IMG/VR virus record: IMGVR_UViG_3300037297_000328
DNA length: 64,000 nt
Source: an uncultured virus (IMG/VR IMGVR_UViG_3300037297_000328)
Lineage: Duplodnaviria; Heunggongvirae; Uroviricota; Caudoviricetes
Strand: one strand, 5' to 3'
Part shown: one piece after another, positions 18,106-40,614 of the stretch
Layout: the number at the start of each line of letters is the position of its first letter
Position numbering within the stretch: position 1 is the stretch's first letter
Notes under the pieces: generated by a model
Seen by the model: the letters and a program-made list of their open reading frames with translations, nothing else
Told to the model about the DNA's origin: nothing
Databases searched by the model: none
Program-made: the position numbers and the translations under genes

Positions 18106-18236
18106 TGCTAACGGTACTTGTGTAAATTTCAGTGCCATTATAGCCGATAAACTAATTTAAAAGTAAAATATTATGAATAAGCAAATAATTATCAAAAAGT
18201 ATGAAGGCAAGGCATTGAATTTACATAATGTTAGTT
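18106..18236 (-). repeat. attC-like site A1
   Basis: tgctAAC ggtacttg TGTAAATTTCAGTGCC...GGCATTGAATTTACA taat GTTagtt. Confidence 0.8.
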
Positions 18237-18487
18237 GCCGTAAATTTCAAGGTGAATTAATTGGAAGAAAAGATATTGACGGAACACCAATTAAAGAAGG
18301 TGATATTGTCAAAGTATATGATAAAATTGAGTGGGGTGGAATTGTTACATATAACGAAAAAGCCTGTGGTTTTTGTTTTGATGAAGAAGATATTGGTGAA
18401 TATTCTTTTGCGTGGGGTTGGGGTGAATCTCAGGAATCACATCCTGAAGAAAGTTGGAAAGTTGTTGGCTCTATTTATGGCAACTAA
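18173..18487 (+). CDS. YopX-like protein (cassette gene)
   Basis: IGRKDIDGTPIKEGDIV...KVVGSIY; start inside A1, stop in TAAC core. Confidence 0.75.
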   Translation: MNKQIIIKKYEGKALNLHNVSCRKFQGELIGRKDIDGTPIKEGDIVKVYDKIEWGGIVTYNEKACGFCFDEEDIGEYSFAWGWGESQESHPEESWKVVGSIYGN

Positions 18488-18599
18488 CATCGAGTATAAC
18501 AAACGTTTAAAACTGACTTAGAATTGAAAAATAGAATTAAATAATAACCACTTACCAAGCAACAACGAACTGATAAATGTTTGTTATATATTGTTAGGC
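18482..18599 (-). repeat. attC-like site A2
   Basis: aactAAC atcgag TATAACAAACGTTT...AAATGTTTGTTATA tatt GTTaggc. Confidence 0.8.
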
Positions 18600-18632
18600 T
18601 TTCGTTTTGTGCGGTGGGATAAAACTAAGATT

Positions 18633-18944
18633 ATGGATGTAGCAGAATTTATTACAAAAAAAATTAAAATACATTCTAAATGTCCTGAATGTAAAAAAAG
18701 AAAATTAGTAGAAGTGCATAGTACAAGTATTGATGCTTTTTATGATGAAAAAGGAAACATTAAAGACACCGTATGGTTCTTTCTAAATATTGATATTGTA
18801 TGTAAAAACAAAAAATGTAAATATAGAAGGTGTTTGGCAAGTGATAATGCTGGTAGTGAAAGTATAAAAGAAATAATGAAAAGTAAATATAAAGATACTA
18901 ATACTGGTATAATGCTTAGACGTGCGTTGGCAAATGAAGCCTAA
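18633..18944 (+). CDS. Cys-rich cassette protein
   Basis: CPEC...CKNKKC; stop in TAAC core. Confidence 0.6.
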   Translation: MDVAEFITKKIKIHSKCPECKKRKLVEVHSTSIDAFYDEKGNIKDTVWFFLNIDIVCKNKKCKYRRCLASDNAGSESIKEIMKSKYKDTNTGIMLRRALANEA

Positions 18945-18998
18945 CGGTACTTGTGTAAATTTCAGTGCCATTATAGCCGATAAACTAATTTAAAAGTA
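18941..18998. repeat. 58-bp exact copy of 18108-18165 (truncated attC-like site)
   Basis: ctaacggtacttgtgtaaatttcagtgccattatagccgataaactaatttaaaagta occurs twice. Confidence 0.9.
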
Positions 18999-19072
18999 TG
19001 GATGATAAAGGTAGGTAAAAAAGAAGCAGGAAGGATGCTTGACGATAAAATATATAACGAATATCCAAATTT

Positions 19073-20689
19073 ATGAAAAAATACTACAGCAAAATTAAGG
19101 TTGATAAATATGAAAGTATGCAAACCCTTGATTGGTATGCTACAAATATTTATCATCCAACGCAGCAGGACGAAGACGGAAAATTTAAAAAAGGGGCCTT
19201 GCGATTACGCGATACGCACCGCGAAATGTTTTCGGCATTGCTGGTGTTGCTTATTACGAAAACAATTTCCAGAAGAAATAAAATTAATGAATATAGCGAT
19301 AAATATATTCCTTATAATATAGAGAAAGGGTTGGAACTAAAAGTTCAACCCTACGAAATTAAGGCCATTATTACCAGGGGGCTTAAGAATGCAATAAGTC
19401 TTCAGACGACAAAAAACAGGATGGATAGGCTTGAAGAGTTAGGGGTTATTTCACGAAGATGGATCCGGAGCGAAGGAGTATTTTCCATCCTGTTTAATCC
19501 CCGGTTTTTAACAATAAAATGCGGAGAATCAGGAAAATTAATAAAGACCAATGATTTTGAAAATAACTCAGAATCAGTAGTATACAAAAGTAAAAATGAA
19601 AATTTAATAAATACTACTAAATATAAAAATAAAATAATACAGGATGAACCTGTTAACAAAAGGAATGTGCATTCGCACATTAATAATTCTTTAAAACCAA
19701 AACATCTTAAAAACCAAAACAAAACAGTGCAGAATAATTCTTTTGGTTCAACCAAAAATACAGATACTCCTCATGAACCCACCATTGCGGTTGAACGTAG
19801 TAATAGTATAACCAATGAAAAATTATGCCCGGAACTAGAGTCTTACAAGAAAAAAGCCGTAAATAAATTTTATGAGAAGTTTATTATGGCATTTTGGCAG
19901 CATTTGACCTCAATGTATTTAATTACACAGGCTCCAAGGCAAACATTGCACTATGTGGAGCAGGCTTATCAATCATTAATGACTGATGACTATTATTTTG
20001 GCGGATGCACCACAGAAAAACAGATAAATTATCAGTTAAACAAATTATTAAAGGCATTAAAAAGCACTATTAACCTGGTGAACGCCAGGAAAAAAGAAAA
20101 TACACGGTGGACAATGGATCACGTATATCCAAATCAATTTCTTTGTTTGCCGCCGGAAAAGGGTAAAATGCGTTTTAAAAATGCATTGCTGCATATCGAG
20201 GAATTTATGGCAATACATGATGAAATGGATATGCTTATTGAAAAACAGATGCAAAAATCGAGGGATAAAAAGAAAAAAAGCAGATATAATTATATCATTT
20301 CTCAAATTATAGCATGGATTATGCTAAATGCAAAAGAAAAAACGGTTTCACTTATTCGACAAGCAGGAGAATATCTGCGAGATATTCACCCAGAATTAAG
20401 CATGAAGCTACACACGGATTTTAACAATCCGTACCTTGTTAAAAAAATTATAAATGCGCATAAAACATTTGATTACAAGCTTATTAATGAGTGTTTTACT
20501 ACGCAAGCCCAAATTCAGGAAGAAATAAATAAACTATTGCCAAAAATGCAACAGTTAATTAGGCAAAATCGATTAACTATTAGTCCTAAAATGTTGATTC
20601 ATTTCAAAATCAGAGGTGATGAAATGAAACCAATCCCTAAAAAATATAACAAATATACACTAAACTTAATCAACAGGTTTTTACGTTAA
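19073..20689 (+). CDS. putative replication initiator / winged-helix protein
   Basis: ISLQTTKNRMDRLEELGVISRR wHTH-like segment, N/K-rich linker, helical C-terminus. Confidence 0.45.
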   Translation: MKKYYSKIKVDKYESMQTLDWYATNIYHPTQQDEDGKFKKGALRLRDTHREMFSALLVLLITKTISRRNKINEYSDKYIPYNIEKGLELKVQPYEIKAIITRGLKNAISLQTTKNRMDRLEELGVISRRWIRSEGVFSILFNPRFLTIKCGESGKLIKTNDFENNSESVVYKSKNENLINTTKYKNKIIQDEPVNKRNVHSHINNSLKPKHLKNQNKTVQNNSFGSTKNTDTPHEPTIAVERSNSITNEKLCPELESYKKKAVNKFYEKFIMAFWQHLTSMYLITQAPRQTLHYVEQAYQSLMTDDYYFGGCTTEKQINYQLNKLLKALKSTINLVNARKKENTRWTMDHVYPNQFLCLPPEKGKMRFKNALLHIEEFMAIHDEMDMLIEKQMQKSRDKKKKSRYNYIISQIIAWIMLNAKEKTVSLIRQAGEYLRDIHPELSMKLHTDFNNPYLVKKIINAHKTFDYKLINECFTTQAQIQEEINKLLPKMQQLIRQNRLTISPKMLIHFKIRGDEMKPIPKKYNKYTLNLINRFLR

Positions 20690-20789
20690 AAAAAGATAAA
20701 ATTATGGATATAATTTACAGAACAATAGGTTTTATTATTGTTCTGATTGCAAAACCTATATACTACCTTGTACGAAAAATATTTAAAAA

Positions 20790-21104
20790 ATGGAAAGACG
20801 AATAATTCATATTGACGAAATGGTGCAAATCTGCGGATATTTCACCACTGAAACTACTGTAAATAACGGCTATGGATGTAAACATCCCGACCAAGAAGAA
20901 CAAGATGAAGATTTATATACTGGAAGGCAACATGGCAAATGCTATGCATTCAATTGTCCACTTGCTCCAGAAGCAGATTTGCAGGACATGAAAGAATTGG
21001 ATCAGGAATTATATGATGAATGGAAGAATGAAGAATACGATCCTACCGAAATGGGCGGTAATTATTTGGTAGTTGATGAGAGTGTTTTGAGAAATGCATT
21101 TTAA
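20790..21104 (+). CDS. Cys-containing hypothetical protein
   Basis: CGYF...NNGYGCKHP...GKCYAFNCPLA; stop in TAAC. Confidence 0.65.
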   Translation: MERRIIHIDEMVQICGYFTTETTVNNGYGCKHPDQEEQDEDLYTGRQHGKCYAFNCPLAPEADLQDMKELDQELYDEWKNEEYDPTEMGGNYLVVDESVLRNAF

Positions 21105-21179
21105 CTCTGAGTTAGACAGCTTTTAAATGCTATTTAACGGTTTGGCTAAGAAGCGTATAGGCAACGTAATACTTAATAA

Positions 21180-21410
21180 ATGGAAAGAATAATAGAATTT
21201 TTGACAAAAAACGGATACAAAGAAGAAACAGAAAGAGGAGCCGAATACAGAAGTTTCTTTAAAGATGGATTAAGCTCCATTGATGTAAATAATGATGAAA
21301 TAGTATTCATTGGGGATAAAGGCGACTGGCTTCATATACCTGTGAATTACTATGCTTTGATTGGCGCATTATTACACCACAGGCAATTGGCGACTAATTA
21401 TGTAGCCTAA
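21180..21410 (+). CDS. cassette hypothetical protein
   Basis: Flanked by taggcaacgtaat / attatgtagcctaac. Confidence 0.65.
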   Translation: MERIIEFLTKNGYKEETERGAEYRSFFKDGLSSIDVNNDEIVFIGDKGDWLHIPVNYYALIGALLHHRQLATNYVA

Positions 21411-21457
21411 CGGTGATAATAAACCGTCGTTTTAATGCGGTTTATTATGTGTTACCG
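21405..21457 (-). repeat. minimal attC-like site A4
   Basis: gcctAAC ggtg ATAATAAACCG tcgttttaatg CGGTTTATTAT gt GTTaccg. Confidence 0.85.
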
Positions 21458-21492
21458 GCTGACACGGATTATTAACAACAAAAGATTATTAA

Positions 21493-22332
21493 ATGAACGG
21501 ACTTAGCAATAACAGTTTTTTGAGCGTTGGCAAAAACGGCTTTGCCGAACTTACACACGGTTCACTTTTTAGCGGTATTGGTGGATTTGAGGAAGGTTCA
21601 GAGCTGGCAGGAATAAAGACTATTTGGAATTGTGAACTTGAAGATTACCAAAGTAAAATATTAAAGCAGAATTACAATGATAGCAAACAATATAGAGATA
21701 TTACAGAGGCAGAAATCACCGAAAGAGTTAGCATTATTAGTGGAGGCTTTCCGTGCCAAGACATTAGCGTTGCGGGAAAAATGGAAGGTATCAAAGGAAA
21801 GCGCAGTGGGCTTTGGAGTGAGATGTTTAGAATTATTCGGAACATTAGACCTTACTACGTCATCATTGAAAACTCGCCAGCTTTGCTTATTCGAGGATTT
21901 GAACAATTCTTATGCGACCTTTCCGAAATCGGGTATAATGCAGAATGGCAAGTGCTTTCAAACATCGCTTTTGGATACCCACACAAAAGAGAAAGATTAT
22001 ACGCTATTGCCTACGCCAACGAAATCGGATTACAAAGCGACATTTGCACAGATAGAGGCTTTAACTCGATATTTAGAAAGTGGACACCAAATCAAAATGA
22101 TGGATATTCTTTGTCAAAAAGGATTCACGAAATCGGAGCGTGTACAGATATTCGAAATGGTGATGGGTTTCAATCCTGGACACACAGAGTTGGGAGCATA
22201 GGAAATGCAGTAAACCCAACACTTGCCTACTATTTATTTGAATGTATTAAATATCATTTTTTAAAAAGGAGGGAAGAAAAAACTGTTATTGCGGACTTAC
22301 AGCAGATAACTCGATTAAATGTACCGGCGTAG
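21493..22332 (+). CDS. C5 cytosine DNA methyltransferase, alpha polypeptide (cassette gene)
   Basis: LFSGIGG, GGFPCQD, ENS, RER, GNAV; motif IX absent. Confidence 0.92.
   Translation: MNGLSNNSFLSVGKNGFAELTHGSLFSGIGGFEEGSELAGIKTIWNCELEDYQSKILKQNYNDSKQYRDITEAEITERVSIISGGFPCQDISVAGKMEGIKGKRSGLWSEMFRIIRNIRPYYVIIENSPALLIRGFEQFLCDLSEIGYNAEWQVLSNIAFGYPHKRERLYAIAYANEIGLQSDICTDRGFNSIFRKWTPNQNDGYSLSKRIHEIGACTDIRNGDGFQSWTHRVGSIGNAVNPTLAYYLFECIKYHFLKRREEKTVIADLQQITRLNVPA
21677..22201 (+). CDS. overprinted beta polypeptide of the C5 methyltransferase (M.EcoHK31I-like)
   Basis: 174 aa alternative frame ending FEMVMGFNPGHT (motif IX-like). Confidence 0.75.
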   Translation: MIANNIEILQRQKSPKELALLVEAFRAKTLALREKWKVSKESAVGFGVRCLELFGTLDLTTSSLKTRQLCLFEDLNNSYATFPKSGIMQNGKCFQTSLLDTHTKEKDYTLLPTPTKSDYKATFAQIEALTRYLESGHQIKMMDILCQKGFTKSERVQIFEMVMGFNPGHTELGA

Positions 22333-22339
22333 TGTTTGC

Positions 22340-22472
22340 CGGTAACGTTGAGCGTATGAGCCTGTTGGCGTGTTAATTAGAATTACAAACTTCAAAAAAC
22401 AGATATAAAATGAGTAAAGAAAATAAAGCACAAGATACCACTAAGCCGATGGCGTATGACGCATTGTTACCT
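22340..22472 (-). repeat. attC-like site A5
   Basis: Minus strand: AAC aatgc GTCATACG...CTCATAC gctcaac GTT, with an extra base in the first L box. Confidence 0.8.
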
Positions 22473-22784
22473 GCCGTTATTTTAGACAACGAAGGATATC
22501 CAACTGATGAGTTTTTAGAATTTATTAGAAACTATACACATGAAACAATGCCAATACTTGATTTTATTGAAATATTGTGCGATGGGTGGTATCATGGAAA
22601 TTGGGGATATAAGCTCCATCGAAAGTATGCAGGTAAGAGAAAGTTTGAATTACATACAGGTGGATGGAGTGGTAACGAAGATACAATATCTGCACTTATA
22701 AGTAACATTTGGCTTACTCATTTTAAGATGAAATACGTGCGGTGGGAGACAGGGGGACACTACTACTTTGAAATTACTTGCTAA
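22410..22784 (+). CDS. cassette hypothetical protein
   Basis: LHTGGWSGNE..I...GGHYYF; start inside A5. Confidence 0.75.
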   Translation: MSKENKAQDTTKPMAYDALLPAVILDNEGYPTDEFLEFIRNYTHETMPILDFIEILCDGWYHGNWGYKLHRKYAGKRKFELHTGGWSGNEDTISALISNIWLTHFKMKYVRWETGGHYYFEITC

Positions 22785-22788
22785 TGGC

Positions 22789-22918
22789 AGGTAACAGTTG
22801 ACAATATGAAATGTATGGGATTAAAAGCGGTATCCTATCCCGATACATTAATGATAATTAAAGGTAGTACCGTACAATTTGGCACTAACACCAGTATATT
22901 TTATATTGTGTGCTAGGC
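22789..22918 (-). repeat. attC-like site A6 (core mutated, GCT for GTT)
   Basis: AATATGAAATGTATGG...CCAGTATATTTTATATT arms. Confidence 0.7.
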
Positions 22919-22936
22919 ACTTTAAAAATTACGGGT

Positions 22937-23134
22937 ATGAAAATAGAAGTATCACAAGATTGGTTTAAGAAAGTGTTAATTGAAAAATTAAAAGAAATTG
23001 ACAAGAAATTGATTAAAGCAGATGAAATGACATACTCAGAAAAAGAATTAAGTGAGGATAAGATACACGATGTGTGGAGTGAAATTAGAGATTCTAATTT
23101 AGAGATAGAAGAACTTATTGAGGCATTGGAGTAA
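22937..23134 (+). CDS. small acidic cassette protein
   Basis: Flanked by 21-bp near-perfect complementary ends. Confidence 0.6.
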   Translation: MKIEVSQDWFKKVLIEKLKEIDKKLIKADEMTYSEKELSEDKIHDVWSEIRDSNLEIEELIEALE

Positions 23135-23144
23135 TTTTTATTGT

Positions 23145-23275
23145 GCCTAACGGACAGCGGTATGCACTGGCCGGATTAACTGGCAGAAAGTTTAATTAAA
23201 TGACAAACATTATGAATACATCGAAACCTAAATTAAAAGTACAAACCCCGGCTTGCGTATTACCGCATATTAGCG
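23145..23275 (-). repeat. attC-like site A7
   Basis: GCGGTATGCA.TGGCCGG...CCGGCTTGCGTATTACCGC; core ATT for GTT. Confidence 0.75.
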
Positions 23276-23562
23276 GTATGTTTAAAGTGGTGGCAAGCGA
23301 TGGGGAGTTTATATTTCCAAAACTATGCCCTTATTGCGGTGGTGATTTATTTTATAGAGGTACTGGATGGATTGAAGATGAGCGAGGGCAGTGGAAAGTT
23401 GATATGATGGATTGCGAATGTTCAACCATGCCAGACTTTGATGATGAAGAATGGGACGACTGGATGAATAACCATAGTGAAATGCCTTATGTGCATCAGT
23501 TACCAGTTGATCAGGCAGTAATGAAATGGATTAATGCGCGGTTTCGCTTTGCGATGGATTAA
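23200..23562 (+). CDS. zinc-ribbon cassette protein
   Basis: CPYCGG; start inside A7. Confidence 0.65.
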   Translation: MTNIMNTSKPKLKVQTPACVLPHISGMFKVVASDGEFIFPKLCPYCGGDLFYRGTGWIEDERGQWKVDMMDCECSTMPDFDDEEWDDWMNNHSEMPYVHQLPVDQAVMKWINARFRFAMD

Positions 23563-23567
23563 ATTAC

Positions 23568-23700
23568 CGCTAACGGCTGCGTTATGCGGTCGTTGCCGAT
23601 ATATCAAATTAGTAATAACTTAAATACGAGGATAAAATTATGAACACAATAAAAAATATCAACGAGGAAAAAGGCAATGCCATATTACCACTTGTTATAG
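23568..23700 (-). repeat. attC-like site A8
   Basis: cgctAAC ggctgc GTTATGCGGTCGTTGCC...GGCAATGCCATATTAC cactt GTTatag. Confidence 0.75.
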
Positions 23701-23873
23701 AGCGTTTTAATATTGACATTCCTTATACTTGCGGGACATTAAAGCGAATAGAATTTAAAACCACAGGGAACGATAAGGTAACTCATTCTTGGTTAGTCCT
23801 GCATGGATTAAAAACTGGAGCTGGTAAAGAATCATTGACCATACACTTAGGCAGGGCTTTAAATGCTCTATAA
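23640..23873 (+). CDS. cassette hypothetical protein
   Basis: Start inside A8; stop in terminal TAAC. Confidence 0.65.
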   Translation: MNTIKNINEEKGNAILPLVIERFNIDIPYTCGTLKRIEFKTTGNDKVTHSWLVLHGLKTGAGKESLTIHLGRALNAL

Positions 23874-23910
23874 CTACTATATATAAGATTAACTTTTTAA
23901 ACAACTTAAT

Positions 23911-24084
23911 ATGAACAAGAAAGGAATATCAACTTTAGGAAAATTTAAAAATAATCTTAAACTTAAAAATTATTCTGATAATACTATTAATATATATATA
24001 CACTATATCTCAGGATTTATTTTAAGCTTTAATAAGCCTGCTCTTCATATAACTATTTTAGATATTAGACAATACAATGCCTAA
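23911..24084 (+). pseudogene. truncated tyrosine integrase N-terminal (SAM-like) domain, IntI-like
   Basis: MNKKGISTLGKFKNNLKLKNYSDNTINIYIHYISGFILSFNKPALHITILDIRQYNA*, matching the L.L.NYS..T...Y.....F pattern. Confidence 0.7.
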
Positions 24085-25122: not shown

Positions 25123-25690
25123 TATGAAAGTACGTTATGATATTGTTAAAAAGAATGGCCGTAGAGAGCCATGGACAGGAATTTTTAAAAACGAAGAATT
25201 AGCAAATAAATGGTATCAAACACATGGGCAATTTTGGATAAACCTAGGCTATATATTAGCACCAGTAATACTACATGAACATATCTTAAAAAAATCAGCT
25301 AATAATAGTGAGAATATTAAACGTTACCAACGCAGTAATAAAAAAGGATATATTGTGCCTGCAAATTCTGTGCATGTTGATGCTCCGTCAAAATGGGCTT
25401 GCCCGTTAAAGCTAATGGGGGATACTATTTTTATAAATGCAAATCACCGCAGAAAAATATTAAGCCCTTGGGTTATTTTAAAAGAAAATGCTACAATGAA
25501 TGACTTGATTGATGCATATAAAAAATTATGGAGTAATAGAAAGTTATCAAATTATGATATGCAGCACTGGCAGAAAAAGCTTAAAGAAATGCCATTGCAT
25601 GAGTTAAAGGGAATGAATTTAGTCTCCTGGTGTAAATTGGACCAGCCAAGTTATGTTGATGTATTAATTGAAATCGCTAATAAGAAGTAA
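25115..25690 (+). CDS. DUF4326-like protein (degenerate motifs)
   Basis: VDAPSKWACP and LKGMNLVSWCKLDQPSYVDVL. Confidence 0.65.
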   Translation: MHNMKVRYDIVKKNGRREPWTGIFKNEELANKWYQTHGQFWINLGYILAPVILHEHILKKSANNSENIKRYQRSNKKGYIVPANSVHVDAPSKWACPLKLMGDTIFINANHRRKILSPWVILKENATMNDLIDAYKKLWSNRKLSNYDMQHWQKKLKEMPLHELKGMNLVSWCKLDQPSYVDVLIEIANKK

Positions 25691-25770
25691 AATAAACGGT
25701 CGGGTATTGGCTTTCGTTGCCTATGCTCAAATAACTACGAATGATTATTAAACGCTTAAAAATTAAATAT

Positions 25771-26103
25771 ATGAACACATTTTCACAAATAGTACAAGAC
25801 AATGAAGTTAATACCTTGTTACCTGCCGTATCATTTCAATTTTTATATCGAAAGAATAATAAGGAATTTTCACAGGAATTTGTTTCAAAGAAAAAAACAC
25901 TAATTGAAGCGATAGATGATTTTTTAACTCGGAAAGAGAATTTGTACGATATAGATGAAGAAGTTAAAGTTACCTATCAAGATGGTAAGCAAGAAATGGT
26001 ACAAGTTGATGCTCGCCAAGATTGGGATTCAAGTTGGTATTTTGTTCACGAAAATAATATTATTTGTGGCAATGGATATGCCTGTCAGCATAATGGCAGC
26101 TAA
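25771..26103 (+). CDS. cassette hypothetical protein
   Basis: Start inside attC loop; stop in TAAC. Confidence 0.6.
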   Translation: MNTFSQIVQDNEVNTLLPAVSFQFLYRKNNKEFSQEFVSKKKTLIEAIDDFLTRKENLYDIDEEVKVTYQDGKQEMVQVDARQDWDSSWYFVHENNIICGNGYACQHNGS

Positions 26104-26153
26104 CGGATACGCTTATATTTAGTGCTGATTTTGAAACAAAAAACTTCAATAGG

Positions 26154-26341: not shown

Positions 26342-26499
26342 CGGGTGGCCGTATGGTGGCGTACCGGATTTGAAAAACACAACTATCAATAAACAATGAA
26401 CTTAAATAGAAATCCAAACTTTCGCAAAGCACCGAGGCCGGTATGCACTATATGGCGTGTTACCGCCCGTTTTTCCCTTTGCGTCCTTAAATTTTTTAT

Positions 26500-27381
26500 A
26501 TGAAAGTAATAGTAGCATATTCAGGAGGTAAAGATTCTCAGGCTTGTTTGATTTGGAGCGTAAAACAATACGGAGTCAAAAATATTGAGGATGTTTTTTG
26601 TGATACTGGATGGGAGCATCCAAAAACCTATGAGCATATACAGACTACTACAAAAAATTTAGGCGTAAAATTGGTTACAGTTAAAAGCAAAAAATACGAT
26701 GGAATGGTTGATTTGGCAGAAAAGAAAAAAAGATTCCCAAGCTCACAAGCAAGGTTCTGTACTTCTGAATTAAAATCCATTCCATTTATCGACTATGTTT
26801 TGGAGCAAAAAGAACACTTAACAGTGATTCAGGGAATAAGGGCTTTAGAAAGCCACAACCGTAGCCAAATGCAAAAGCAATGTAGGTTTTTCAAATACTA
26901 TTTTGAGCCATATAATGCAAAAGGCAAAAAACATACATACAGGAGTAAAGATGTTAAGGAATGGGTATCCAAATATTCAGATGATATTTTGCGACCTGTA
27001 TTTGATTGGACAGGACAACAGGTGATTGATTATATAATTGAAAACGGACAAGAACCAAACGAACTATACAAGCAAGGTTTTAAACGTGTTGGTTGCTTTT
27101 CCTGTATAATGAGTGGACATAAAGAAGTATATGAAATTATAAAACGATACCCAGAGCGATTTAATGAAATTATTGAACATGAAAATAGAATTGGTTCCAG
27201 TTTCTTTAAAATAGATTTTGTTCCTGATTATGCACAAAGTGGAATTTGTGATAGAATCGGAAAGAAATATACAATTGGTGAAGATGTGAGAAAGTATTTA
27301 GAGGCTAAAAACCAAACAATGGATTTATTTGGTGAAGATAGCCCGATTTCATGTTCAAGTTATTATCACTTATGCGAGTAG
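26500..27381 (+). CDS. PAPS reductase-family protein (cassette gene)
   Basis: YSGGKDS, DTGWEHP, RFCTSELK, GIRALES, RVGCFSC. Confidence 0.92.
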   Translation: MKVIVAYSGGKDSQACLIWSVKQYGVKNIEDVFCDTGWEHPKTYEHIQTTTKNLGVKLVTVKSKKYDGMVDLAEKKKRFPSSQARFCTSELKSIPFIDYVLEQKEHLTVIQGIRALESHNRSQMQKQCRFFKYYFEPYNAKGKKHTYRSKDVKEWVSKYSDDILRPVFDWTGQQVIDYIIENGQEPNELYKQGFKRVGCFSCIMSGHKEVYEIIKRYPERFNEIIEHENRIGSSFFKIDFVPDYAQSGICDRIGKKYTIGEDVRKYLEAKNQTMDLFGEDSPISCSSYYHLCE

Positions 27382-27474
27382 CTCTTTGCGTCCTTAAATG
27401 GGCGGTAACGTGTTGTGTATTCGGTCATTGCTGTTTTGAAAGATAGTACAAATTTAGATTAAAGAACATAAGAT

Positions 27475-28089
27475 ATGAATATAAATACAGTTACAAAAAA
27501 GCCACAAGGCAATTCCGTATTACACGGTGTTAGTGGCAGTTATTCCTATGATAACCGATACTTGCATAGGTTTTTTAAAATGAATACCGCACCGCTGTTA
27601 ATGAGCATGAAAGTATTTCCGAATATTAAAGAAATAACCGAGAGTGTGGGAGCATTTGTGGCAATACAAGACCACTTAATTGATAAATATGTAAGCCGAA
27701 CAGATGAAGTTGATGTATATGTAGTAGGTGACGGACACAGCCCACGTACAGGTGCGTTGATAGCTTGCCTTACCAAATGGAATGTTAAAAGCATAGACCC
27801 ACAAATGCGTGGGAAACAATGGAATATTAAACGCTTAGAAACATATAAAAACAAAGCAGAAGAATTAAGCTTTGAAGGTAACAATAATAGTGCGGTGGTT
27901 GTTTGCGTACACTCCCATGCTAAAATAAGCGACTGCTTTAAAATGCTGCACGGATATTCGGAAATACATTTGGTTAATATACCCTGCTGCTTTAAAGCCG
28001 ATATCGATAAAAAACCTAATGTAAGTTACACCGATTTTGGCATACAAAGTGAAAAGCAAAAAGTTGACATCTACTTTAATTGCCACTAA
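27475..28089 (+). CDS. SAM-dependent methyltransferase-like cassette protein
   Basis: VYVVGDGHSPRTG, SIDP, HSH, IPCC. Confidence 0.6.
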   Translation: MNINTVTKKPQGNSVLHGVSGSYSYDNRYLHRFFKMNTAPLLMSMKVFPNIKEITESVGAFVAIQDHLIDKYVSRTDEVDVYVVGDGHSPRTGALIACLTKWNVKSIDPQMRGKQWNIKRLETYKNKAEELSFEGNNNSAVVVCVHSHAKISDCFKMLHGYSEIHLVNIPCCFKADIDKKPNVSYTDFGIQSEKQKVDIYFNCH

Positions 28090-28225
28090 CGGTTTTAATA
28101 AACACAGTATGGCAGCCCACCATACTTTAAACAATGGCAGAACCTTGCCCCTGCCATGTGGCAGTTATTCCTATGATAACCGATAATTGGGTTTATTTAT
28201 TATTAGGGCGAGTTAATTTTAAAGT

Positions 28226-28426: not shown

Positions 28427-28536
28427 TTCGCCTCAACGGTACGGCAATATGATTAGTTGCCATACCATAAACTTTAAAATTTAGTAATAACCTGACAGGC
28501 AATTAATTATATTGCTTATTATAAATCTGATAAATT

Positions 28537-28714: not shown

Positions 28715-29005
28715 ATTTATTTGTTTATAACTACTATATATAACAACCTTTAATTATTGTATTGATAATCAATAAAATAAAAATATCAACTTTAGGAAAA
28801 TATAAAAAATATCCTAAACTTTAAAATTATTTTATGGATATAATAAATAAAATAAAATACGGAGTAATTGTTGTTGAATATAATAAACGTGCAAAATCAA
28901 AATATCCTTATGTTTTTGAATGGATAGAAGGGAAGAAACTTTTGGCTTGTACAGCAGATTGGGGATTTAATAGTCTTGATGATTTTGTTTCATTTTACAA
29001 TGAGG

Positions 29006-30793: not shown

Positions 30794-30798
30794 AATTA

Positions 30799-31434: not shown

Positions 31435-31518
31435 TTAATTGTGTTTAAAAGTGTACATATTTCTTGTTGTAAAACATTAAAACGATTTTACAACACGGTA
31501 TATAATTAATAAAAACAC

Positions 31519-31809: not shown

Positions 31810-31870
31810 ATTTTAAAATTTTATCGTTATTAAATCGTGTTTTTACTAATCATGTACCCATCCGTTAGGT

Positions 31871-32122
31871 TTAATTTGTTTTAAGTTGAACAAGCCCCGT
31901 CTTTTGTTTAGGCAGTAAAGTTTCCCAGCAACTACCTAACCCATACTCTTTACCAAACTTAAAACAAACTCCGCTCACATCTTTCCATATCATTAGTTGG
32001 TATTTTGTACCACCGTGCTTTCTATTATTCCACAAGGTTATTGTCTTATCGCTAAACCTAACAATGTATATAAAAACATTGCTAAGTGTGTACCAATTTT
32101 TACGTTTATATCTTTTATTCAT
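31871..32122 (-). CDS. cassette hypothetical protein
   Basis: Start inside attC loop. Confidence 0.6.
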   Translation of the reverse strand: MNKRYKRKNWYTLSNVFIYIVRFSDKTITLWNNRKHGGTKYQLMIWKDVSGVCFKFGKEYGLGSCWETLLPKQKTGLVQLKTN

Positions 32123-32179
32123 AATTGTAAGTGTTTTAAAGTTATTACTCTTAATCCGCAACGTTTCATACACTCAACG

Positions 32180-32467
32180 TTAGCAACCATTAAAAGACCG
32201 CCACAACTCGACAAACTTTTCTCTTTTCATTTGCCTTAATTCTCTATTGTCAGCATACTTTCTTTCGTGATAGATTTCAATTTCACTACCGCCAGTGAAG
32301 TAAACTGAATATCTCAACCAAGAACTATCACCACCTACTTTTCCAACTCTTTCCACTTTGCGTAAATCAATCGTGTCTCCGCAAATGTCGATAATAGGAT
32401 TAACGGCTGCTAACAAACGGTTAGCATCATTGCCGTTTTCGTGGTTAATTGAATTTTTGTTTTCCAT
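32180..32467 (-). CDS. cassette hypothetical protein
   Basis: Start inside attC loop; stop in core. Confidence 0.65.
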   Translation of the reverse strand: MENKNSINHENGNDANRLLAAVNPIIDICGDTIDLRKVERVGKVGGDSSWLRYSVYFTGGSEIEIYHERKYADNRELRQMKREKFVELWRSFNGC

Positions 32468-32629
32468 ATCAAATTTTGTTTTTAAGTGAATGTTTTGTGT
32501 TCCAAAGTCGGCAACGAACGCCAACCGCCAAAACGTTAACTACAAGCGGGTTTGGTGGCTCGTATTTAAGTTCCTGCGTATGCGAAGAAAAAAAATAAAA
32601 GCCCCCCGCTTTAGGTTTTTCAAACCCAT

Positions 32630-33418
32630 TTATATAAAAACAACATTTCCCTGTTTATGGTGTACATTATCAGAATCTAATATTTTCATCCATTCTTCTT
32701 TTGTTGCCGTGTAGCTTGCAAAAGTTGAGGCATTTTTAGCACACCATTCACAAAGTTCTTCAAATGTTTCAAATACTGGTGAACTTGGCGAACCTTCGCT
32801 TGTTGTTTCCCATAATTGAAATCCTTCGCCTGTTGGTGGTTCGTAATTTTCCCAATTTTCATATAATTCTTTTGCTCTTGAGTGTTGCCATTTTTCGCCT
32901 TCACCGTTACATTTAGGGCATGAAGATGATTTGCCTTCTCTTTTTAATCTTGCTTTTATACAATACCAAGCATTACTCGAATCATGTCCCATTCCTTTTA
33001 AATTCCACTCATTTACTTCTTTTGGTGTTGGAATATAACCGTTATTAAATGGAAGCCAGGAATTACCGCCATCGGCAATTTTTTGTTTTACTATTGCTTT
33101 TTGTTCGTCATTAATTGGAACTCTTGTGAAATCCCAAAGCCTATCAGCGTCTAAAAGTGCTTTTACATCATCTTCATTAAGGTTGTTATTCCAAGCGTTC
33201 GCATTGTATCTCCAACCTTCTCTGAAAGGATTAAGCTTATAATTTTCTTCTGTGTGATAGCCATACCACTCATCATGTAATTTATCATACTCTTTCGAGT
33301 ATCCGGTTCCTTTACAGTGTTTGCATTCATGCCTTGCGTGAGGGTTTAAATAACCACTCCAAATTTTTCCTATTTCCCAATCAAAATCTATTGGTACTCG
33401 TTTCATTGTTCGTCCCAT
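32630..33418 (-). CDS. cassette protein with CxxCxGxG zinc motifs
   Basis: CKHCKGTG, CPKCNGEG, EPPTGEGFQLWETTSEGSP.SPVF. Confidence 0.8.
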   Translation of the reverse strand: MGRTMKRVPIDFDWEIGKIWSGYLNPHARHECKHCKGTGYSKEYDKLHDEWYGYHTEENYKLNPFREGWRYNANAWNNNLNEDDVKALLDADRLWDFTRVPINDEQKAIVKQKIADGGNSWLPFNNGYIPTPKEVNEWNLKGMGHDSSNAWYCIKARLKREGKSSSCPKCNGEGEKWQHSRAKELYENWENYEPPTGEGFQLWETTSEGSPSSPVFETFEELCEWCAKNASTFASYTATKEEWMKILDSDNVHHKQGNVVFI

Positions 33419-33613
33419 GTTGTTTTTATATTTTAAATTTTCCCACCCTTCTTTTTATTTTTTTAGTGCTTCGTACAAGCGGCGGTGAGTAATTAATCCG
33501 CCAGTAGTTAACACGTTACATATTGCAAAAGCCAATTGGCGTTAGTGCGTTGAATCGGTCGATTGTGGTTGGCTTTCGACAACATGTAACCGGTCCGTTA
33601 GGCACAATAAAAA

Positions 33614-34238: not shown

Positions 34239-34263
34239 TATAATAATATTTAATAAGTTTTAA

Positions 34264-35992: not shown

Positions 35993-36009
35993 TATTTAAA
36001 ATTTTAAAT

Positions 36010-36621
36010 CTATAATTTTTTCATATAAAATGCATCCCCCCAAATTCCTCCAGCCCAATTAGTCTCTACACGCTCAAAACCAAAAATGGCTAAAAATGAA
36101 TCTATCTGCTGCACTTGTGCGCAATTTTCATAGACTTCATCCCGGTTTACTTCTGCCATAATGTAATCAATGTATTGCAGCGTGTTTTTTGCCCCTTTAA
36201 ATACTTCAAGCTCGTAACCCTGCACATCAATATTTATGAAATTATACAATGAAGCGTTAAATAAAATATTATCCAACTTATTGATCAATACTTTTTTACT
36301 ATCCTCAAATTTTACATTAGGGTGGCGGGTTAGGTGTTTTTTAGGTTTTAATATAGAGGAAGAAGCGCCGCCATTTGAGGCAACATTAAAATTAATAAGT
36401 CCTTTTTTGTTTCCAAGCGCAACATTGTAACACAATGCATTATTACGGACAACAGTAGTTAATAGCTTAAATGTTTCCGGATCGGGTTCAAAATACATGA
36501 TATTTTTTATTCCCGAAGCAATGTATAATTTATGTTCGGTGCCTATATGAGCGCCAATATGTATTACGCCTTTTATTTTAAGGCTGTATTTGCGCATTAA
36601 TTCTGCCCAGTCTAGTATCAT
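36010..36621 (-). CDS. FkbM-family methyltransferase
   Basis: HIGAHIG, FEP, SSSIL, IDVQGYELEV.KGA. Confidence 0.93.
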   Translation of the reverse strand: MILDWAELMRKYSLKIKGVIHIGAHIGTEHKLYIASGIKNIMYFEPDPETFKLLTTVVRNNALCYNVALGNKKGLINFNVASNGGASSSILKPKKHLTRHPNVKFEDSKKVLINKLDNILFNASLYNFINIDVQGYELEVFKGAKNTLQYIDYIMAEVNRDEVYENCAQVQQIDSFLAIFGFERVETNWAGGIWGDAFYMKKL

Positions 36622-36622
36622 T

Positions 36623-36919
36623 TTATTTATTTTTCAACCACCATTCAAGTTCTTTCTCTATATCAAAATTTCCTGCAAATCCGTAACGAAAAGCACAGTG
36701 AAATGTAAAGTCTTTTAATTGTTTTCTTGTGAACATCGGTTCGTTTACTTTCTTTACCCATTTATTTTTTTCCCAGCAATTGATAGTAAAAGGAGAATAT
36801 GACTCTCTTCCAAGTTGTTTAGACCATGGAGTGTAAAAGAAACTTATATCTTTCTCATAGTTCTCTAATATAAGTCCTTTTTTCAGCCATCCATGTTTTT
36901 TTGTCACAATGTATTTCAT
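36623..36919 (-). CDS. hypothetical protein
   Basis: 98 aa ORF. Confidence 0.5.
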   Translation of the reverse strand: MKYIVTKKHGWLKKGLILENYEKDISFFYTPWSKQLGRESYSPFTINCWEKNKWVKKVNEPMFTRKQLKDFTFHCAFRYGFAGNFDIEKELEWWLKNK

Positions 36920-37262
36920 AATAGTATAATTTATACTCCAAATAATTCATAAAACGATAATTTTTTCAATTTATTAATAGCTTTTTGTAGTTTTTTTACA
37001 AAAAAAGGTTTTGAATTTAGGCAATATTCAGGCTTTTTGTATTCGTCAAAAAATGGTTCATATGGGCTTGAGAGCATTGAATTAGGAGTAAGTGTTTTCA
37101 TTTCTTCACTGTCTATTTCTCTGATTTGTACATCTTTTTCGTAGAAAATAACAGGTGCTATAATGATATATTGTTTTTTGTCTGGTAACATTTTATTTAG
37201 TTCAGCACTATTAGCGATAATTATTCGTCCGTTTTGGGCATATAATTTTAAATATGTAGTTT

Positions 37263-38099
37263 TCATCTTAATATAAAATTGGGTGGATAAAAACCTTCGC
37301 CTAAATCTTTTTCTAAAAACCAATATTTTTTAGGCGCAATGGTTATTTTGTTTTTATCTGCATTTAAAAACCCTACCCACCAACTAAATGACGAAATAGG
37401 GGAGAGGATATAATGGTCGCATTGTTGCATTAATGCAAAGTCGTTAATTGTCGTGTGTTCATAATCGGGAAATAAAAATTTATCACTTCCTTTAAAATAA
37501 TTACGGCACCATCTATAATCTTCATTATTTCTGGCGTATCGTTGCCCCCCGGTAAATATCAGAAATTTTATTTTCCTGTCTTTTAGTACTTCTTTTGCCC
37601 TGTAAAAATAAATTGGCCATTTTTCTTCATACATATTAAGTGCCGTATCGCCACGTCGCAAGTGCAGGGCAACAATTTCATACCCTTTATTTTGCTTTTT
37701 GATTTGCTGCATTTGTTTTTTTGCCCAGGTTACGAGTGGTTCTTTTAATGATAGCTCTTTACGGAGTAAATCAACATGATCCTGATAATATTGATAGTTT
37801 TGAAAAAAGCCAAGGATATCGTAACCATCTCGAATGTGATAAATAATTCCGGGAGTATAAGAAAAATTTTTGTTTCTAGCTTCAAATAGTGTTTTTTCGA
37901 TTTTATCATCAGAAGATAGAAATTCAGCAGTAATATTAAAGTTTCCTAATAAGCATTGTTGACCGTGCCAGCTATGCTGTCTGTAATCAGGTATTTTTAT
38001 TTTAAGCTCTTTTATTTGTCCAACAACAAGCAGAAAAGCATATTGAAATAGCTGATTTCCTAGTCGTCCGTATCTTCCAAGTTTTGAAAATGTAATCAT
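37263..38099 (-). CDS. GT11 alpha-1,2-fucosyltransferase
   Basis: GRLGNQLFQYA, GFFQ, HLRRGD, SSFSWW. Confidence 0.93.
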   Translation of the reverse strand: MITFSKLGRYGRLGNQLFQYAFLLVVGQIKELKIKIPDYRQHSWHGQQCLLGNFNITAEFLSSDDKIEKTLFEARNKNFSYTPGIIYHIRDGYDILGFFQNYQYYQDHVDLLRKELSLKEPLVTWAKKQMQQIKKQNKGYEIVALHLRRGDTALNMYEEKWPIYFYRAKEVLKDRKIKFLIFTGGQRYARNNEDYRWCRNYFKGSDKFLFPDYEHTTINDFALMQQCDHYILSPISSFSWWVGFLNADKNKITIAPKKYWFLEKDLGEGFYPPNFILR

Positions 38100-38239
38100 T
38101 TTTTGGTCATTAAGTCATTAATCAGAAAAAGTATTCATTTTTTTTAATATTTTTAAATTTTCCTAAAGTTGATTTTACATTATATTAATAATCAACTATT
38201 TAGAAGTTGGTGTTTATATATAATAGTTAGCAACAATGC

Positions 38240-38584
38240 CTAATACTGTTGCACTATTTCGGTATCTGGTATAATTCGAGTTTGCTTATTAGCCACCGCA
38301 CGCAAATTATAGTAGTTACTTTCTTTGTCGCTATTTAGGTGCATTGCTACCCAATATTTTTTGCCTTTATGTTCTTTAAGCCTTACCCACTTGTACATAT
38401 AATGGTGTTTTCGGCCCCTGCCTTGGTCATTAACTCCGAAGAAGTGGTACACCTTTAAAACCGCAAACTCTTTAATCTGCTTTCCTTTTTTATCAAAGTA
38501 TGGAGCTTCAGTGTCGGCACAGTTGCTAACACACGGTAAAACTCCATTACCTTTCTGTTTTTGTTGCTTAATATCTTCATTCAT
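38240..38584 (-). CDS. cassette hypothetical protein
   Basis: Start inside attC loop; YFDKKG..I....VLKVYHF. Confidence 0.7.
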   Translation of the reverse strand: MNEDIKQQKQKGNGVLPCVSNCADTEAPYFDKKGKQIKEFAVLKVYHFFGVNDQGRGRKHHYMYKWVRLKEHKGKKYWVAMHLNSDKESNYYNLRAVANKQTRIIPDTEIVQQY

Positions 38585-38686
38585 AATTCCTACTATTTTG
38601 AAAATTTATCTCTCGTATTTAAAACGGCAACGAGAGTTTACCGTCAAACGTTATTGGCAGGCTGAACGAACAGCCTGCCCATTAAG

Positions 38687-38865
38687 TCATTTTTTAGACT
38701 TTTCCATTTTTGTCACAGCATTCATTGCCATTTGGTTTGAAATACCGTACTTTCTAGCTCTCTGATAAATCCCAAACTTCACCTTACCAATAGGTATTCT
38801 TTGGCTAATTTATCGGCTCTTTTTCTTCTCTCTTTTAAAGAAAGTCTTTTATCAACTTGTGACAT
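38687..38865 (-). pseudogene. frameshifted cassette gene
   Basis: MSQVDKRLSLKE... stops early; another frame gives RIPIGKVKFGIYQRARKYGISNQ...KK*. Confidence 0.45.
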
Positions 38866-39291
38866 AATATTGAAATTAAAGCCAGCCCACAACAATAAAT
38901 AAACCCCATAGAGCTGATTATGGAAGTTTATCTTTTATATATTTTGCTAAGTTACTAATAATACGAAACATTGTCAATTTTAATCTCTACGGTATTTATT
39001 ATAGTCGTTGGGCGCAATTTTAGACATCCCCTAATCGGATTTCGTTTTCACCCTTGCAATCATAATGTCTCATTCCTTTCCAACTTCCAAACAGTACCCC
39101 CATTTCACTTCCTTTATCTACAACAGGGCATCCATCTTGCCCCCATCGTACGTCCTTGCCACAAATCATGCAAGGGTTTTCAATTTGCTTTTTTTTCTTA
39201 GTTTTCGTTTTCATAATAATAATTGCTATAATATCAATAGGACAGCATAGCCATCTCCAAATATTTTTCATAACGTATTTTTTAAATTTTC

Positions 39292-39855: not shown

Positions 39856-39856
39856 G

Positions 39857-40150: not shown

Positions 40151-40154
40151 GGCT

Positions 40155-40604: not shown

Positions 40605-40614
40605 ATTTAAATTA

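Follow-up and report, generated by a model that had tools for sequence, protein, structure and literature searches.

Cassette arrays and their sites

The window considered here, 64,000 nucleotides (nt) of an uncultured virus of the Caudoviricetes (IMG/VR record IMGVR_UViG_3300037297_000328), is apparently part of a large phage, judging by its gene content, and carries small genes in four arrays at 18.1–23.9, 25.7–28.8, 31.4–33.6, and 38.2–39.0 kb (arrays A to D), with an outlier at 58.7–59.5 kb. A first-pass annotation, made from the sequence alone, had described these genes as separated by imperfect palindromes with AAC and GTT cores, and had proposed a phage-borne, integron-like system of mobile cassettes. 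Both proposals are supported by the present analysis, through cassette-specific complementarity of flanking words, breakpoints at the cores, attI-like junctions, and intact platforms elsewhere. We consider it probable that the window holds four decayed arrays of an integron-like cassette system, known from phages of Bacteroidota type and from the chromosome of at least one member of the Bacteroidota.

When the intergenic stretches were read in gene sense and folded, each site took the form of an imperfect palindrome that starts with (C)TAAC and ends with GTTA. Sixteen AAC...GTT sites were placed via the words at their two ends (R'', which ends in TAAC, and R', which starts with GTTA), and approximately seven further places are partial, showing just a left arm, a degenerate core, or nothing beyond a match to the covariance model. 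Every one lies on the gene-sense strand, and the earlier estimate of about 20 sites was a fair one. The distance from AAC to GTT is 116–120 nt in nine of the 16 sites, 104–113 nt in three, and 84, 39, or 34 nt in the rest. Most window sites extend over ∼135 nt, with the right arm and GTTA inside the 5' end (the first 18–23 codons) of the next open reading frame (ORF), which is why many of them first resembled half sites; nine placed sites contain the start codon of that ORF. The first-pass annotation recognized the palindromes and set them between genes, missing this overlap; of its spacer lengths, the 5 nt after TAAC holds for a shorter, 48-nt class of sites, and the 6–9 nt on the other side is in fact 2 nt before GTTA. 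The folds follow the attC layout (R''-L''-loop-L'-R', bounded by AAC and GTT), and arms pair better than all but at most 13 of 300 shuffles in 13 of the 16 sites (at most three shuffles were as good in nine sites, and 8–13 in four), placing 9–13 sites above shuffles. The word CTAACGG occurs in nine copies, all on the gene-sense strand and at, or no more than ∼15 nt past, the stop codon of a listed ORF (the ORF preceding the copy at 18108 is doubtful), as compared with 2.67 (SD 1.58) in shuffled sequence, where none of 100 shuffles reached nine. The word preceding TAAC is usually itself preceded by (T)ATT, for example TTTATT-NNNNN-TAAC, and the downstream box is longer than the upstream box.

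Every gene lies between the two halves of an inverted repeat specific to it, GTTAxxxxx upstream and xxxxxTAAC downstream. The word after the upstream GTTA complements the word before the TAAC downstream of the same gene and not the TAAC word of its own hairpin; in the same way, the 5' core word of an integron cassette complements the inverse core of that cassette and not that of the neighboring site. Exact R'/R'' pairs of 9–10 nt close at least 11 gene bodies, among them those starting at 18230/18479, 18593/18937, 21451/22338, 22466/22786, 23694/23865, 26459/27400, 27529/28081, 31864/32053, 32535/33504, and 38226/38522, and pairs with one mismatch start at 22912/23143, 23269/23565, 25818/26095, and 32179/32405. 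The sites and cassette bodies are listed below, with complementary positions of the closing words in parentheses and with shuffles counted as those, out of 300, whose arms pair as well.

18104..18239, plus strand: site A1; R'' AATGCTAAC, left arm, loop with ATG 18173, right arm and R' GTTAGTTGCC inside the YopX-like ORF; arms beat 300/300 shuffles
18230..18488, plus strand: cassette body A1 (YopX-like), closed by GTTAGTTGCC / GGCAACTAAC (10/10)
18479..18601, plus strand: site A2, GGCAACTAAC ... GTTAGGCTT; 1/300 shuffles
18593..18945, plus strand: cassette body A2 (Cys-rich small protein), closed by GTTAGGCTT / AAGCCTAAC (9/9)
18937..18998, plus strand: site A3, truncated; identical to 58 nt at the start of A1 (18108–18165), without right arm or R'
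21096..21148, plus strand: site A4, weak, GCATTTTAAC ... GTTTGGCTA; core resembles the site at 58810; arms not above shuffles
21402..21459, plus strand: site A5, 48-nt class; TAAC, 4 nt, 11-bp stem, loop TCGTTTTAATG, stem, 2 nt, GTTA
21451..22346, plus strand: cassette body A5 (C5 DNA methyltransferase), closed by GTTACCGGC / GCCGGTAAC
22338..22475, plus strand: site A6, GCCGGTAAC ... GTTACCTGCC; holds ATG 22410; arms not above shuffles
22466..22795, plus strand: cassette body A6, closed by GTTACCTGCC / GGCAGGTAAC (10/10)
22786..22920, plus strand: site A7, GGCAGGTAAC ... GCTAGGCAC, with core GCT replacing GTT; 8/300 shuffles
22912..23151, plus strand: cassette body A7, closed by GCTAGGCAC / GTGCCTAAC (8/9)
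23143..23278, plus strand: site A8, GTGCCTAAC ... ATTAGCGGTA; holds ATG 23200; 0/300 shuffles
23269..23574, plus strand: cassette body A8 (Cys-rich protein), closed by ATTAGCGGTA / TACCGCTAAC (9/10)
23565..23703, plus strand: site A9, TACCGCTAAC ... GTTATAGAGC; holds ATG 23640; 8/300 shuffles
23694..23874, plus strand: cassette body A9, last of array A, closed by GTTATAGAGC / GCTCTATAAC (10/10)
25690..25827, plus strand: site B1, AAATAAAC ... GTTACCTGCC; holds ATG 25741; 10/300 shuffles
25818..26104, plus strand: cassette body B1, closed by GTTACCTGCC / GGCAGCTAAC (9/10)
26095..26150, plus strand: site B2, partial; CAGCTAAC and family-type left arm, R' not found
26437..26468, plus strand: site B3, degenerate, GGCCGGTAT ... 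GTTACCGCCC
26459..27409, plus strand: cassette body B3 (PAPS reductase), closed by GTTACCGCCC / GGGCGGTAAC (10/10)
27400..27538, plus strand: site B4, GGGCGGTAAC ... GTTAGTGGCA; holds ATG 27475; 13/300 shuffles
27529..28090, plus strand: cassette body B4, closed by GTTAGTGGCA / TGCCACTAAC (10/10)
28081..28210, plus strand: site B5, TGCCACTAAC ... ATTAGGGCG, with core ATT; arms not above shuffles
28430..28536, plus strand: site B6, partial; CGCCTCAAC with a left arm of family type and an extended AT-rich palindrome, R' not clearly present
33504..33605, minus strand: site C1, GTGCCTAAC ... GTTAACTAC; 0/300 shuffles
32535..33512, minus strand: cassette body C1 (262-aa Cys-rich protein and terminator-like hairpin), closed by GTTAACTAC / GTAGTTAAC (9/9)
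32405..32543, minus strand: site C2, GTAGTTAAC ... GTTAGCAGCC; 0/300 shuffles
32179..32414, minus strand: cassette body C2, closed by GTTAGCAGCC / GGTTGCTAAC (9/10)
32053..32188, minus strand: site C3, GGTTGCTAAC ... GTTAGGTTTA; 0/300 shuffles
31864..32062, minus strand: cassette body C3, closed by GTTAGGTTTA / TAAACCTAAC (10/10)
31810..31873, minus strand: site C4, partial; AACCTAAC and family-type left arm, R' not found
31453..31507, minus strand: hairpin with loop CGTTTTAATG, closed by GTTGTAAAA / TTTTACAAC
38885..39015, minus strand: site D1, GCGCCCAAC ... GTTGTGGGC; 3/300 shuffles
38522..38658, minus strand: site D2, GCCAATAAC ... GTTAGCAAC; holds ATG 38584; 0/300 shuffles
38226..38530, minus strand: cassette body D2, closed by GTTAGCAAC / GTTGCTAAC (9/9)
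58700..58859, plus strand: outlying unit; R' GTTAGCAATT, R'' TGTTGCTAAC (8/10), then hairpin with loop GTTTTAATG
59485..59528, plus strand: second copy of the 58810-type hairpin, weak

Site D2 is the example that the first-pass annotation had given (as 38524–38656), and it is real, its arms ACGGTAAACTC and GGAGTTTTACCGT leaving one base unpaired. Cassettes account for ∼10–11 kb of the window and not for most of the 18–39 kb originally assigned to the system, and no such sites were found in four stretches of that interval (19.0–20.8, 24.0–25.7, 29.0–31.4, and 34.0–38.1 kb). The cargo is phage-type, as had been proposed: a C5 DNA methyltransferase (PF00145, 3e-42), a PAPS reductase (PF01507, 1e-24), and a YopX-like protein that falls just below the Pfam cut-off (22.2 as compared with 22.4 bits). 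Some cassette bodies have their own terminator-like hairpin.

Within 2 kb of each other, exact 9-mer pairs (GTT[AG]N5 and its reverse complement) number 20 in the window, 14 of which lie inside 18106..39280, whereas first-order Markov simulations gave 8.9 (SD 3.0, maximum 15 in 50 runs). Complementarity anchored on the core and extending at least 6 nt beyond GTT was found in four of 23 adjacent intergenic pairs, as compared with eight of 401 non-adjacent ones. The closing words also change in a compensatory manner between relatives: for the PAPS reductase they are GTTACCGCCC/GGGCGGTAAC in the window, GTTACCGCCA/TGGCGGTAAC in L011 (77% identity), and GTTAGAAAC/GTTTCTAAC in L012 (80%), and for the methyltransferase they are GTTACCGGC/GCCGGTAAC in the window and GTTACGCGC/GCGCGTAAC in L091, L092, and L095. 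Together with the junctions, recombinase remnants, and recombinase-array linkage presented below, these gene-specific repeats indicate that the sites are cassette boundaries and not plain hairpins.

Several smaller features accompany the arrays. Site A1 is ∼78% identical to an element in L001–L003, and the 58-nt element that it shares with A3 (18108–18165 = 18941–18998) is present as a 58-nt contig at double depth in sequencing run X1. After the second copy come unrelated sequence and an ORF of 538 aa (19073–20689) that matches no family, which gives the impression of an array interrupted at this point. A local hairpin within this element (GGTACTTG...CAGTGCC) was considered as a complete small site and rejected, since it proved to be the left arm of A1, a site of 136 nt. 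The genes ending at 23134 and 33614, next to the downstream boxes at 23135–23151 and 33597–33613, have an identical 21-nt tail, TTTTTATTGTGCCTAACGGAC. In the PAPS reductase cassette, a 16-nt direct repeat, CTTTGCGTCCTTAAAT, occurs just inside both R boxes (26477–26492 and 27384–27399; two matches, zero expected), and the relative L011 retains the downstream copy only; insertion of the reductase gene into a hairpin loop with a 16-nt target duplication was rejected on the grounds that L011 has no upstream copy.

The array junction and its recombinase

Arrays A, B, and D end at the motif TAAC|TAYTATATATAA, fused to the R'' of the last cassette (three matches in the window, with 0.03 expected), and beside each junction lies a remnant of a tyrosine recombinase gene:

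23871..23886, plus strand: attI-like junction A, TAAC|TACTATATATAA; the motif also precedes intact recombinase genes in relatives
28728..28743, plus strand: attI-like junction B, TAAC|TACTATATATAA
38214..38229, minus strand: attI-like junction D, TAAC|TATTATATATAA
23911..24084, plus strand: recombinase remnant A, a 57-aa ORF with the N-terminal SAM-like domain only (PF13495, 27 bits)
28768..28830, plus strand: recombinase remnant B, ∼21 codons of the same N-terminus with an internal stop (tblastn E 0.59, weak alone)
38140..38172, minus strand: recombinase remnant D, 11 codons (STLGKFKNIKK; tblastn E 3.2, weak alone)

Remnant A is 65–69% identical to the first 55 residues of the 269–270-aa tyrosine recombinases P0003 and P0004, and remnants B and D have in common the 12-mer ATCAACTTTAGG as well as their position after the attI-like motif. 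A 164-aa ORF at 24077–24571 was considered as the lost catalytic half of the enzyme and rejected, having no Pfam match and no recombinase motifs. A 37-nt piece between the attI-like motif and remnant B (28753–28789) is shared with another, abundant element, a 10-kb contig at ∼800-fold depth in run X1 and ∼80-fold depth in run X2.

Intact versions of this arrangement occur in other phages. Among 12 IMG/VR recombinase loci inspected upstream of the match, ten (L283–L288, L290, L291, L293, and L295) have a full-length or near-full-length homolog (∼245–270 residues matched) behind the attI-like motif, which lies 50–60 nt before the recombinase ATG in most relatives inspected; in L294 the match is limited to residues 20–76, and L292 has no clear attI-like motif. 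Ten IMG/VR loci were scanned for R'/R'' pairs, of which 44 lie upstream of the recombinase gene and two downstream, with contiguous arrays in eight loci, one pair in L286, and none in L287. The core of window site C2 is homologous to a connector (the stretch from TAAC to GTTA) in the L291 array, next to an intact recombinase gene. In seven phage arrays, 59 of 63 ORFs are on the recombinase strand, pointing toward the junction and the recombinase gene, and site-model matches in recombinase loci are likewise oriented (14 of 14 on the recombinase strand, 13 of 14 upstream of the gene).

The full-length relatives of the recombinase comprise 268–346 aa. Its best solved relatives are archaeal XerA structures (4a8e, 5hxy) and its best NCBIfam model is NF040815, while TIGR02249, the model for IntI-type integrases, gives 131–205 bits in two stretches, as compared with a cut-off of 265. 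In alignment with VchIntIA (2a3v), it has 21 residues where IntI4 has 63 (residues 183–245), the region of the additional, IntI-specific domain around patch III. By sequence, then, the linked enzyme is a predicted ∼270-aa Xer/XerA-like tyrosine recombinase, related to IntI and without the IntI-specific domain, and the attI-like junction would be the point of insertion.

Bacterial counterparts, breakpoints, and the 48-nt site family

A profile scan of genome contigs with the recombinase alignment gave matches of 33–36% among the matches listed. Homologs at E up to 1e-45 occur in 83 of 401 genomes from the phylum of a Chitinophagaceae metagenome-assembled genome, although this count does not show that every homolog heads an array. 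The best bacterial homolog (L300; 268 aa, 47% identity) has the junction motif upstream, and in five of 11 other bacterial loci an R'/R'' pair begins 92–130 nt after the stop codon of a longer recombinase relative. In one of these five, from a Bacteroidota genome and extended as L312, a 346-aa relative is followed by 12 consecutive exact pairs with near-identical connectors of 136–140 nt. Its junction reads TATATATTA|GTTA, its connector spacers (3 and 7 nt) mirror those of the phage sites (5 and 2 nt), and its genes point away from the junction in the canonical direction, which is reversed in the phage arrays. From this mirror arrangement it follows that phage genes are antisense in the frame of the sites, and that, read in phage gene sense, the canonical crossover at G|TT falls at TAA|C. 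The junction position, the L001/L002 segment, the run X3 contig, and the published IntI1 junction in P12002L_attC2, each described below, all fit a crossover at TAA|C.

The segment common to L001 and L002 spans TAAC to TAAC. Three sequencing runs (X1–X3) were available as assembled contigs, a type of data in which circles, starts, and rare deletions are invisible; in a run X3 contig from another study, the match to the window starts at the TAAC at 27406 and runs to the contig's own end, at 28092, shortly beyond the next TAAC, and run X2 contigs break at 32535, the end of cassette body C1. Identical cassettes recur in different neighborhoods with breaks exactly at the cores. Contig joints listed in the three runs were considered as evidence of excision and not used, their sides being short (20–34 nt) and of unknown content. 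GenBank phages include no close relative of the window (megablast of 18–40 kb returned one 47-nt hairpin match only, and the primase-like protein gave distant matches only), and the DnaA-HTH protein had no relatives found in IMG/VR, so there is no close sister genome for a presence/absence comparison.

The 48-nt class forms a widespread family. A pattern consisting of TAAC, stem, TCGTTTTAATG, stem, and GTTA occurs in more than 132 IMG/VR stretches, with at least 84 distinct sites among the matches listed. For the listed sites with enough flank, the complement of GTTA and its following five bases was found within 1.2 kb downstream in 37 of 81 and upstream in five of 81, and permuting the extensions among sites gave a mean of 2.5 and a maximum of 8 in 200 runs. 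Across 54 distinct sites of 46–49 nt among the matches listed, the inner 11-bp helix is 91.1% paired, 10 of its 11 pairs are changed on both sides, and its covariation score is 0.526 versus 0.171 (0 of 500 shuffles reached 0.526); the five bases flanking one site on either side are paired in 49.8% of cells only. The loop CGTTTTAATG is constant while the stems covary, and it is kept in more than 80 IMG/VR sites among the matches listed. Connector families are common to unrelated phages.

A covariance model (R1) built from IMG/VR sites alone, with none from the window, matched the window at 21403–21459 (site A5; 58.5 bits, E 1.7e-10), 31453–31507 (E 5.6e-5), 58810–58859 (E 0.0017), and 32054–32187 (site C3; E 0.086), all in gene sense, with the second hairpin copy at 59485..59528 giving E 0.39. 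In the Polaribacter phage P12002L the same model has seven matches at E up to 0.0044. The hairpin at 31453–31507 is 91.5% identical over 47 nt to a sequence in Cellulophaga phage phi39:1, which itself has two tandem hairpin copies between the small terminase gene and gp03 (L009, NC_021804, 2960–3045). Two further observations concern related phage contigs: the inner hairpin of one connector is exactly reverse-complemented between L001 (∼3330–3360) and L003 (reverse strand), a flipped stem-loop in near-identical 31-kb phage contigs; and in contig G001 (20944–21279; L005) an ORF resembling a GIY-YIG-type homing endonuclease, so named from a GIYGI...YIGQS motif read by eye, lies directly upstream of a cassette and is absent from the related 31-kb phage.

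Interpretation and comparison with known systems

In the mechanism that we propose, each gene body, enclosed by an inverted repeat particular to it (GTTA and 5–6 nt upstream, their complement and TAAC downstream), forms a unit, and units are joined by connectors whose paired arms would let a single strand fold like an attC site. The phage connector stands upstream of its gene, often supplying the start codon and ∼18–23 leader codons, and the recombinase gene comes directly after the attI-like junction, TAAC|TAYTATATATAA, at the array end. The recombinase would cut the conserved core at TAA|C in gene sense, equivalent to G|TTA when read as in the bacterial arrays; a cassette (connector and gene body) would exit as a circle, within which its own R'' and R' pair, and the circle would re-enter at the attI-like site or at another connector.

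The system shares with integrons, especially sedentary chromosomal ones, the tandem small genes between imperfect palindromes with AAC/GTT cores, the complementary gene-flanking words expected from a crossover inside the core box, and a tyrosine recombinase gene with a fixed junction at one array end; the near-identical repeats of the bacterial array L312 are like those of Vibrio arrays. Unlike integrons, the phage-linked recombinase is without the IntI-specific domain and scores below the TIGR02249 cut-off, and the short (48-nt) sites have a conserved loop and spacers of 5 and 2 nt. In an integron, attC lies downstream of a usually promoterless ORF and the ORFs point away from attI, whereas in the phage arrays the folding site is upstream of the gene, often with its start codon, and genes point toward the recombinase gene. 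We therefore regard the system as one that would function like an integron but is not one in the strict sense: of the attC layout assigned by the first-pass annotation, the AAC/GTT-bounded palindrome stands, and its resemblance to attC is one of analogy and not of membership, given the missing domain, the upstream sites, the broken recombinases of the window, and the published failure of one family member (P12002L_attC1) to recombine with IntI1.

Clusters of attC sites lacking integron-integrases (CALINs) have been reported from virulent phages, 17 in number with at least two sites each and with DNA methyltransferase cargo (Qi et al., 2023, PMC9892861). The window likewise has clustered attC-type sites and methyltransferase cargo; with many sites and no intact recombinase gene, it would count as a CALIN if its sites were accepted as canonical attC. 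One reported site also belongs to the family described here: P12002L, in which two attC sites were reported (PMC9892861), has in P12002L_attC1, called by HattCI only (PMC9892861, Figure 2 legend), a site with loop TCGTTTTAATG. IntI1 recombined the other site, P12002L_attC2, at G|TTAGGC (PMC9892861), a word whose reverse complement is the gene-sense GCCTAAC that follows gp35; attC2 is read on the opposite strand. The portions of that paper considered here (Qi, Rajabal, Ghaly, Tetu and Gillings, 2023) describe no Xer-like recombinase, attI-like motif, or gene-flanking complementarity. The Xer-type simple tyrosine recombinases (XerA, XerC, XerD), which provide the closest solved structures and the best NCBIfam model, differ in that they resolve chromosome dimers at a single dif site, whereas here the gene is preceded by a TA-rich junction motif and occupies one end of a cassette array. 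No account of this recombinase-junction-connector system was found in the portions of the literature covered, on phage CALINs, integrons (including archaeal ones), tyrosine recombinase classification, and PeSL elements, exclusive of preprint supplements. Phage attC clusters are thus already published (PMC9892861), and the recombinase-linked system with its junction motif and connectors is apparently new with respect to these sources.

Several observations weigh against this interpretation. Whole-window 10-mer pairs with one mismatch are at background (36 versus 35.8 simulated), as are unanchored longest inverted matches between neighboring intergenic regions (7.67 versus 7.13); only core-anchored or exact counts exceed the AT-rich background, and the signal accordingly rests on exact, core-anchored words. 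Three of the 16 sites (A4, A6, and B5) have arm pairing at shuffle level, and the PAPS reductase homologs in L013–L015 are without such sites. The first-pass annotation expected related phages to break at the cores, and they do so at TAAC in L001/L002 and in runs X2 and X3; in the window versus L090 and among L091, L092, and L095, breaks instead fall on the GTTA side, and three small-gene insertions between two related 31-kb phages occur where genes simply meet, with no sites present. The GTTA-side breaks are not accounted for by one crossover point alone; they imply that connectors and gene bodies have been re-assorted, and they could reflect recombination of either strand, or gene conversion via the conserved right arm. 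No excision, circle, or empty site was seen in the assembled contigs of the three runs, where circles cannot appear. IntI1 failed to recombine P12002L_attC1 (PMC9892861, section 3.4 and supplement), a result that weighs against IntI as the enzyme and not against recombination as such. Finally, the 64-kb window has no intact recombinase gene and all three copies are truncated, so the window arrays are probably relics, or dependent on an enzyme encoded elsewhere.

The connectors could alternatively be regulatory modules (promoter, leader, and terminator hairpin) like the promoter-early stem-loop (PeSL) cassettes of T4-type phages, the genes being shuffled by homologous recombination with no dedicated recombinase. 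PeSLs, too, are short, conserved intergenic stem-loop modules that bound small accessory genes in variable regions and mediate their shuffling, and their exchange and mini-circles have been published (Arbiol et al., 2010, PMC2839356). The upstream position of the connectors, with the next start codon held in nine placed sites, their sharing among unrelated phages, and the breakpoints at both connector ends would all suit such modules. PeSLs are, however, described in the portions of that paper considered here as promoter-plus-terminator units moved by homologous recombination, without gene-specific inverted repeats, AAC/GTT cores, recombinase, or junction site, and homologous exchange predicts neither the gene-specific repeats with their compensatory changes, nor a fixed attI-like junction beside the recombinase gene in most phage loci examined, nor the recombinase-headed bacterial array L312. 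Sigma-70-type promoters are also not enriched in the window (99 matches versus 96.6 expected, in a scan that does not model Bacteroidota promoters) and terminator-like sites are in slight excess only (17 versus 11.5, SD 3.4), and we consider this explanation unlikely.

That the hairpins and gene-flanking repeats act at the RNA level only, as terminators or as processing or stabilizing stems that pair messenger ends, and spread by descent, is less probable still. The sense-strand orientation of all sites, the conservation of loop CGTTTTAATG over covarying stems in the manner of a protein-bound RNA hairpin, and the terminator-like hairpins of some bodies would accord with it; the recurrence of identical cassettes in different neighborhoods with breaks exactly at the cores, and the tie of the arrays to a recombinase gene and fixed junction motif, would not, and the exact inversion of an inner hairpin between L001 and L003 is a DNA event. 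It is hardly credible that the units are moved by a single-strand HUH transposase (IS200/IS605 or REP/RAYT type) that recognizes subterminal hairpins and inserts after TAAC. Hairpins do stand beside a conserved 4-nt word and modules start directly after TAAC, but no Y1/HUH transposase family was found among 115 window ORFs scanned against Pfam at E up to 0.01, as would mark IS200/IS605 palindrome-associated transposable elements (PATE) or REP/RAYT pairs; moreover, it is a tyrosine recombinase that accompanies the arrays, and HUH elements are without gene-specific terminal inverted repeats.

We give even weight, for and against, to the cassette system being a second integron lineage, in which an IntI-related, Xer-like recombinase without the IntI domain would operate across Bacteroidota chromosomes and phages. 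Its sites would double as expression adaptors (promoter region, start codon, and ∼18–23-codon leader) with each gene body inserted in frame behind an exchangeable head; because either site strand may recombine, connectors would be assorted independently of gene bodies; and the phages would possess an engine for shuffling methyltransferases and other counter-defense or host-takeover genes. Gain and exchange of small accessory genes by phages are mostly ascribed to illegitimate or homologous recombination, and the present finding points instead to a site-specific engine of integron style, present both in phages and in the Bacteroidota that they infect and having a recombinase family, a junction site, and a site geometry of its own. 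If so, cassette boundaries would be predictable from sequence alone, the presence of methyltransferase and other cassettes in unrelated phages would have an explanation, as would the reporting of only stray sites in such phages by integron-finding software, and a compact recombinase-and-site pair would be available for bench use.

The window has a G+C content of 29–38% and, outside the arrays, includes endolysin and peptidoglycan-binding genes (124–1534), tail-like proteins (∼3.6 kb), an 861-aa primase-like protein (44510–47095), and a terminase-like ATPase (54230). A Bacteroidota-type host is suggested by the presence of PF14053/DUF4248 in the window and by the relatives found later. A scan for tRNA and tmRNA found no genes in the window, and Rfam, which contains no attC model, gave no matches over its whole length. 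The gene content is rich in methyl-, glycosyl-, and sulfotransferases: three minus-strand blocks (29006–31434, 34264–38099, and 39292–42921) hold sulfotransferases, family 8 and 11 glycosyltransferases, and FkbM and other methyltransferases, densely packed and without cassette sites, and resemble a phage-borne glycan-modification set. Two genes are unusual as phage cargo, encoding a homolog of SiaC-family regulatory phosphoproteins (7114–7509; PF09345, 3e-22) and a papain-family C1 peptidase (55808–56659; PF00112, 4e-18).

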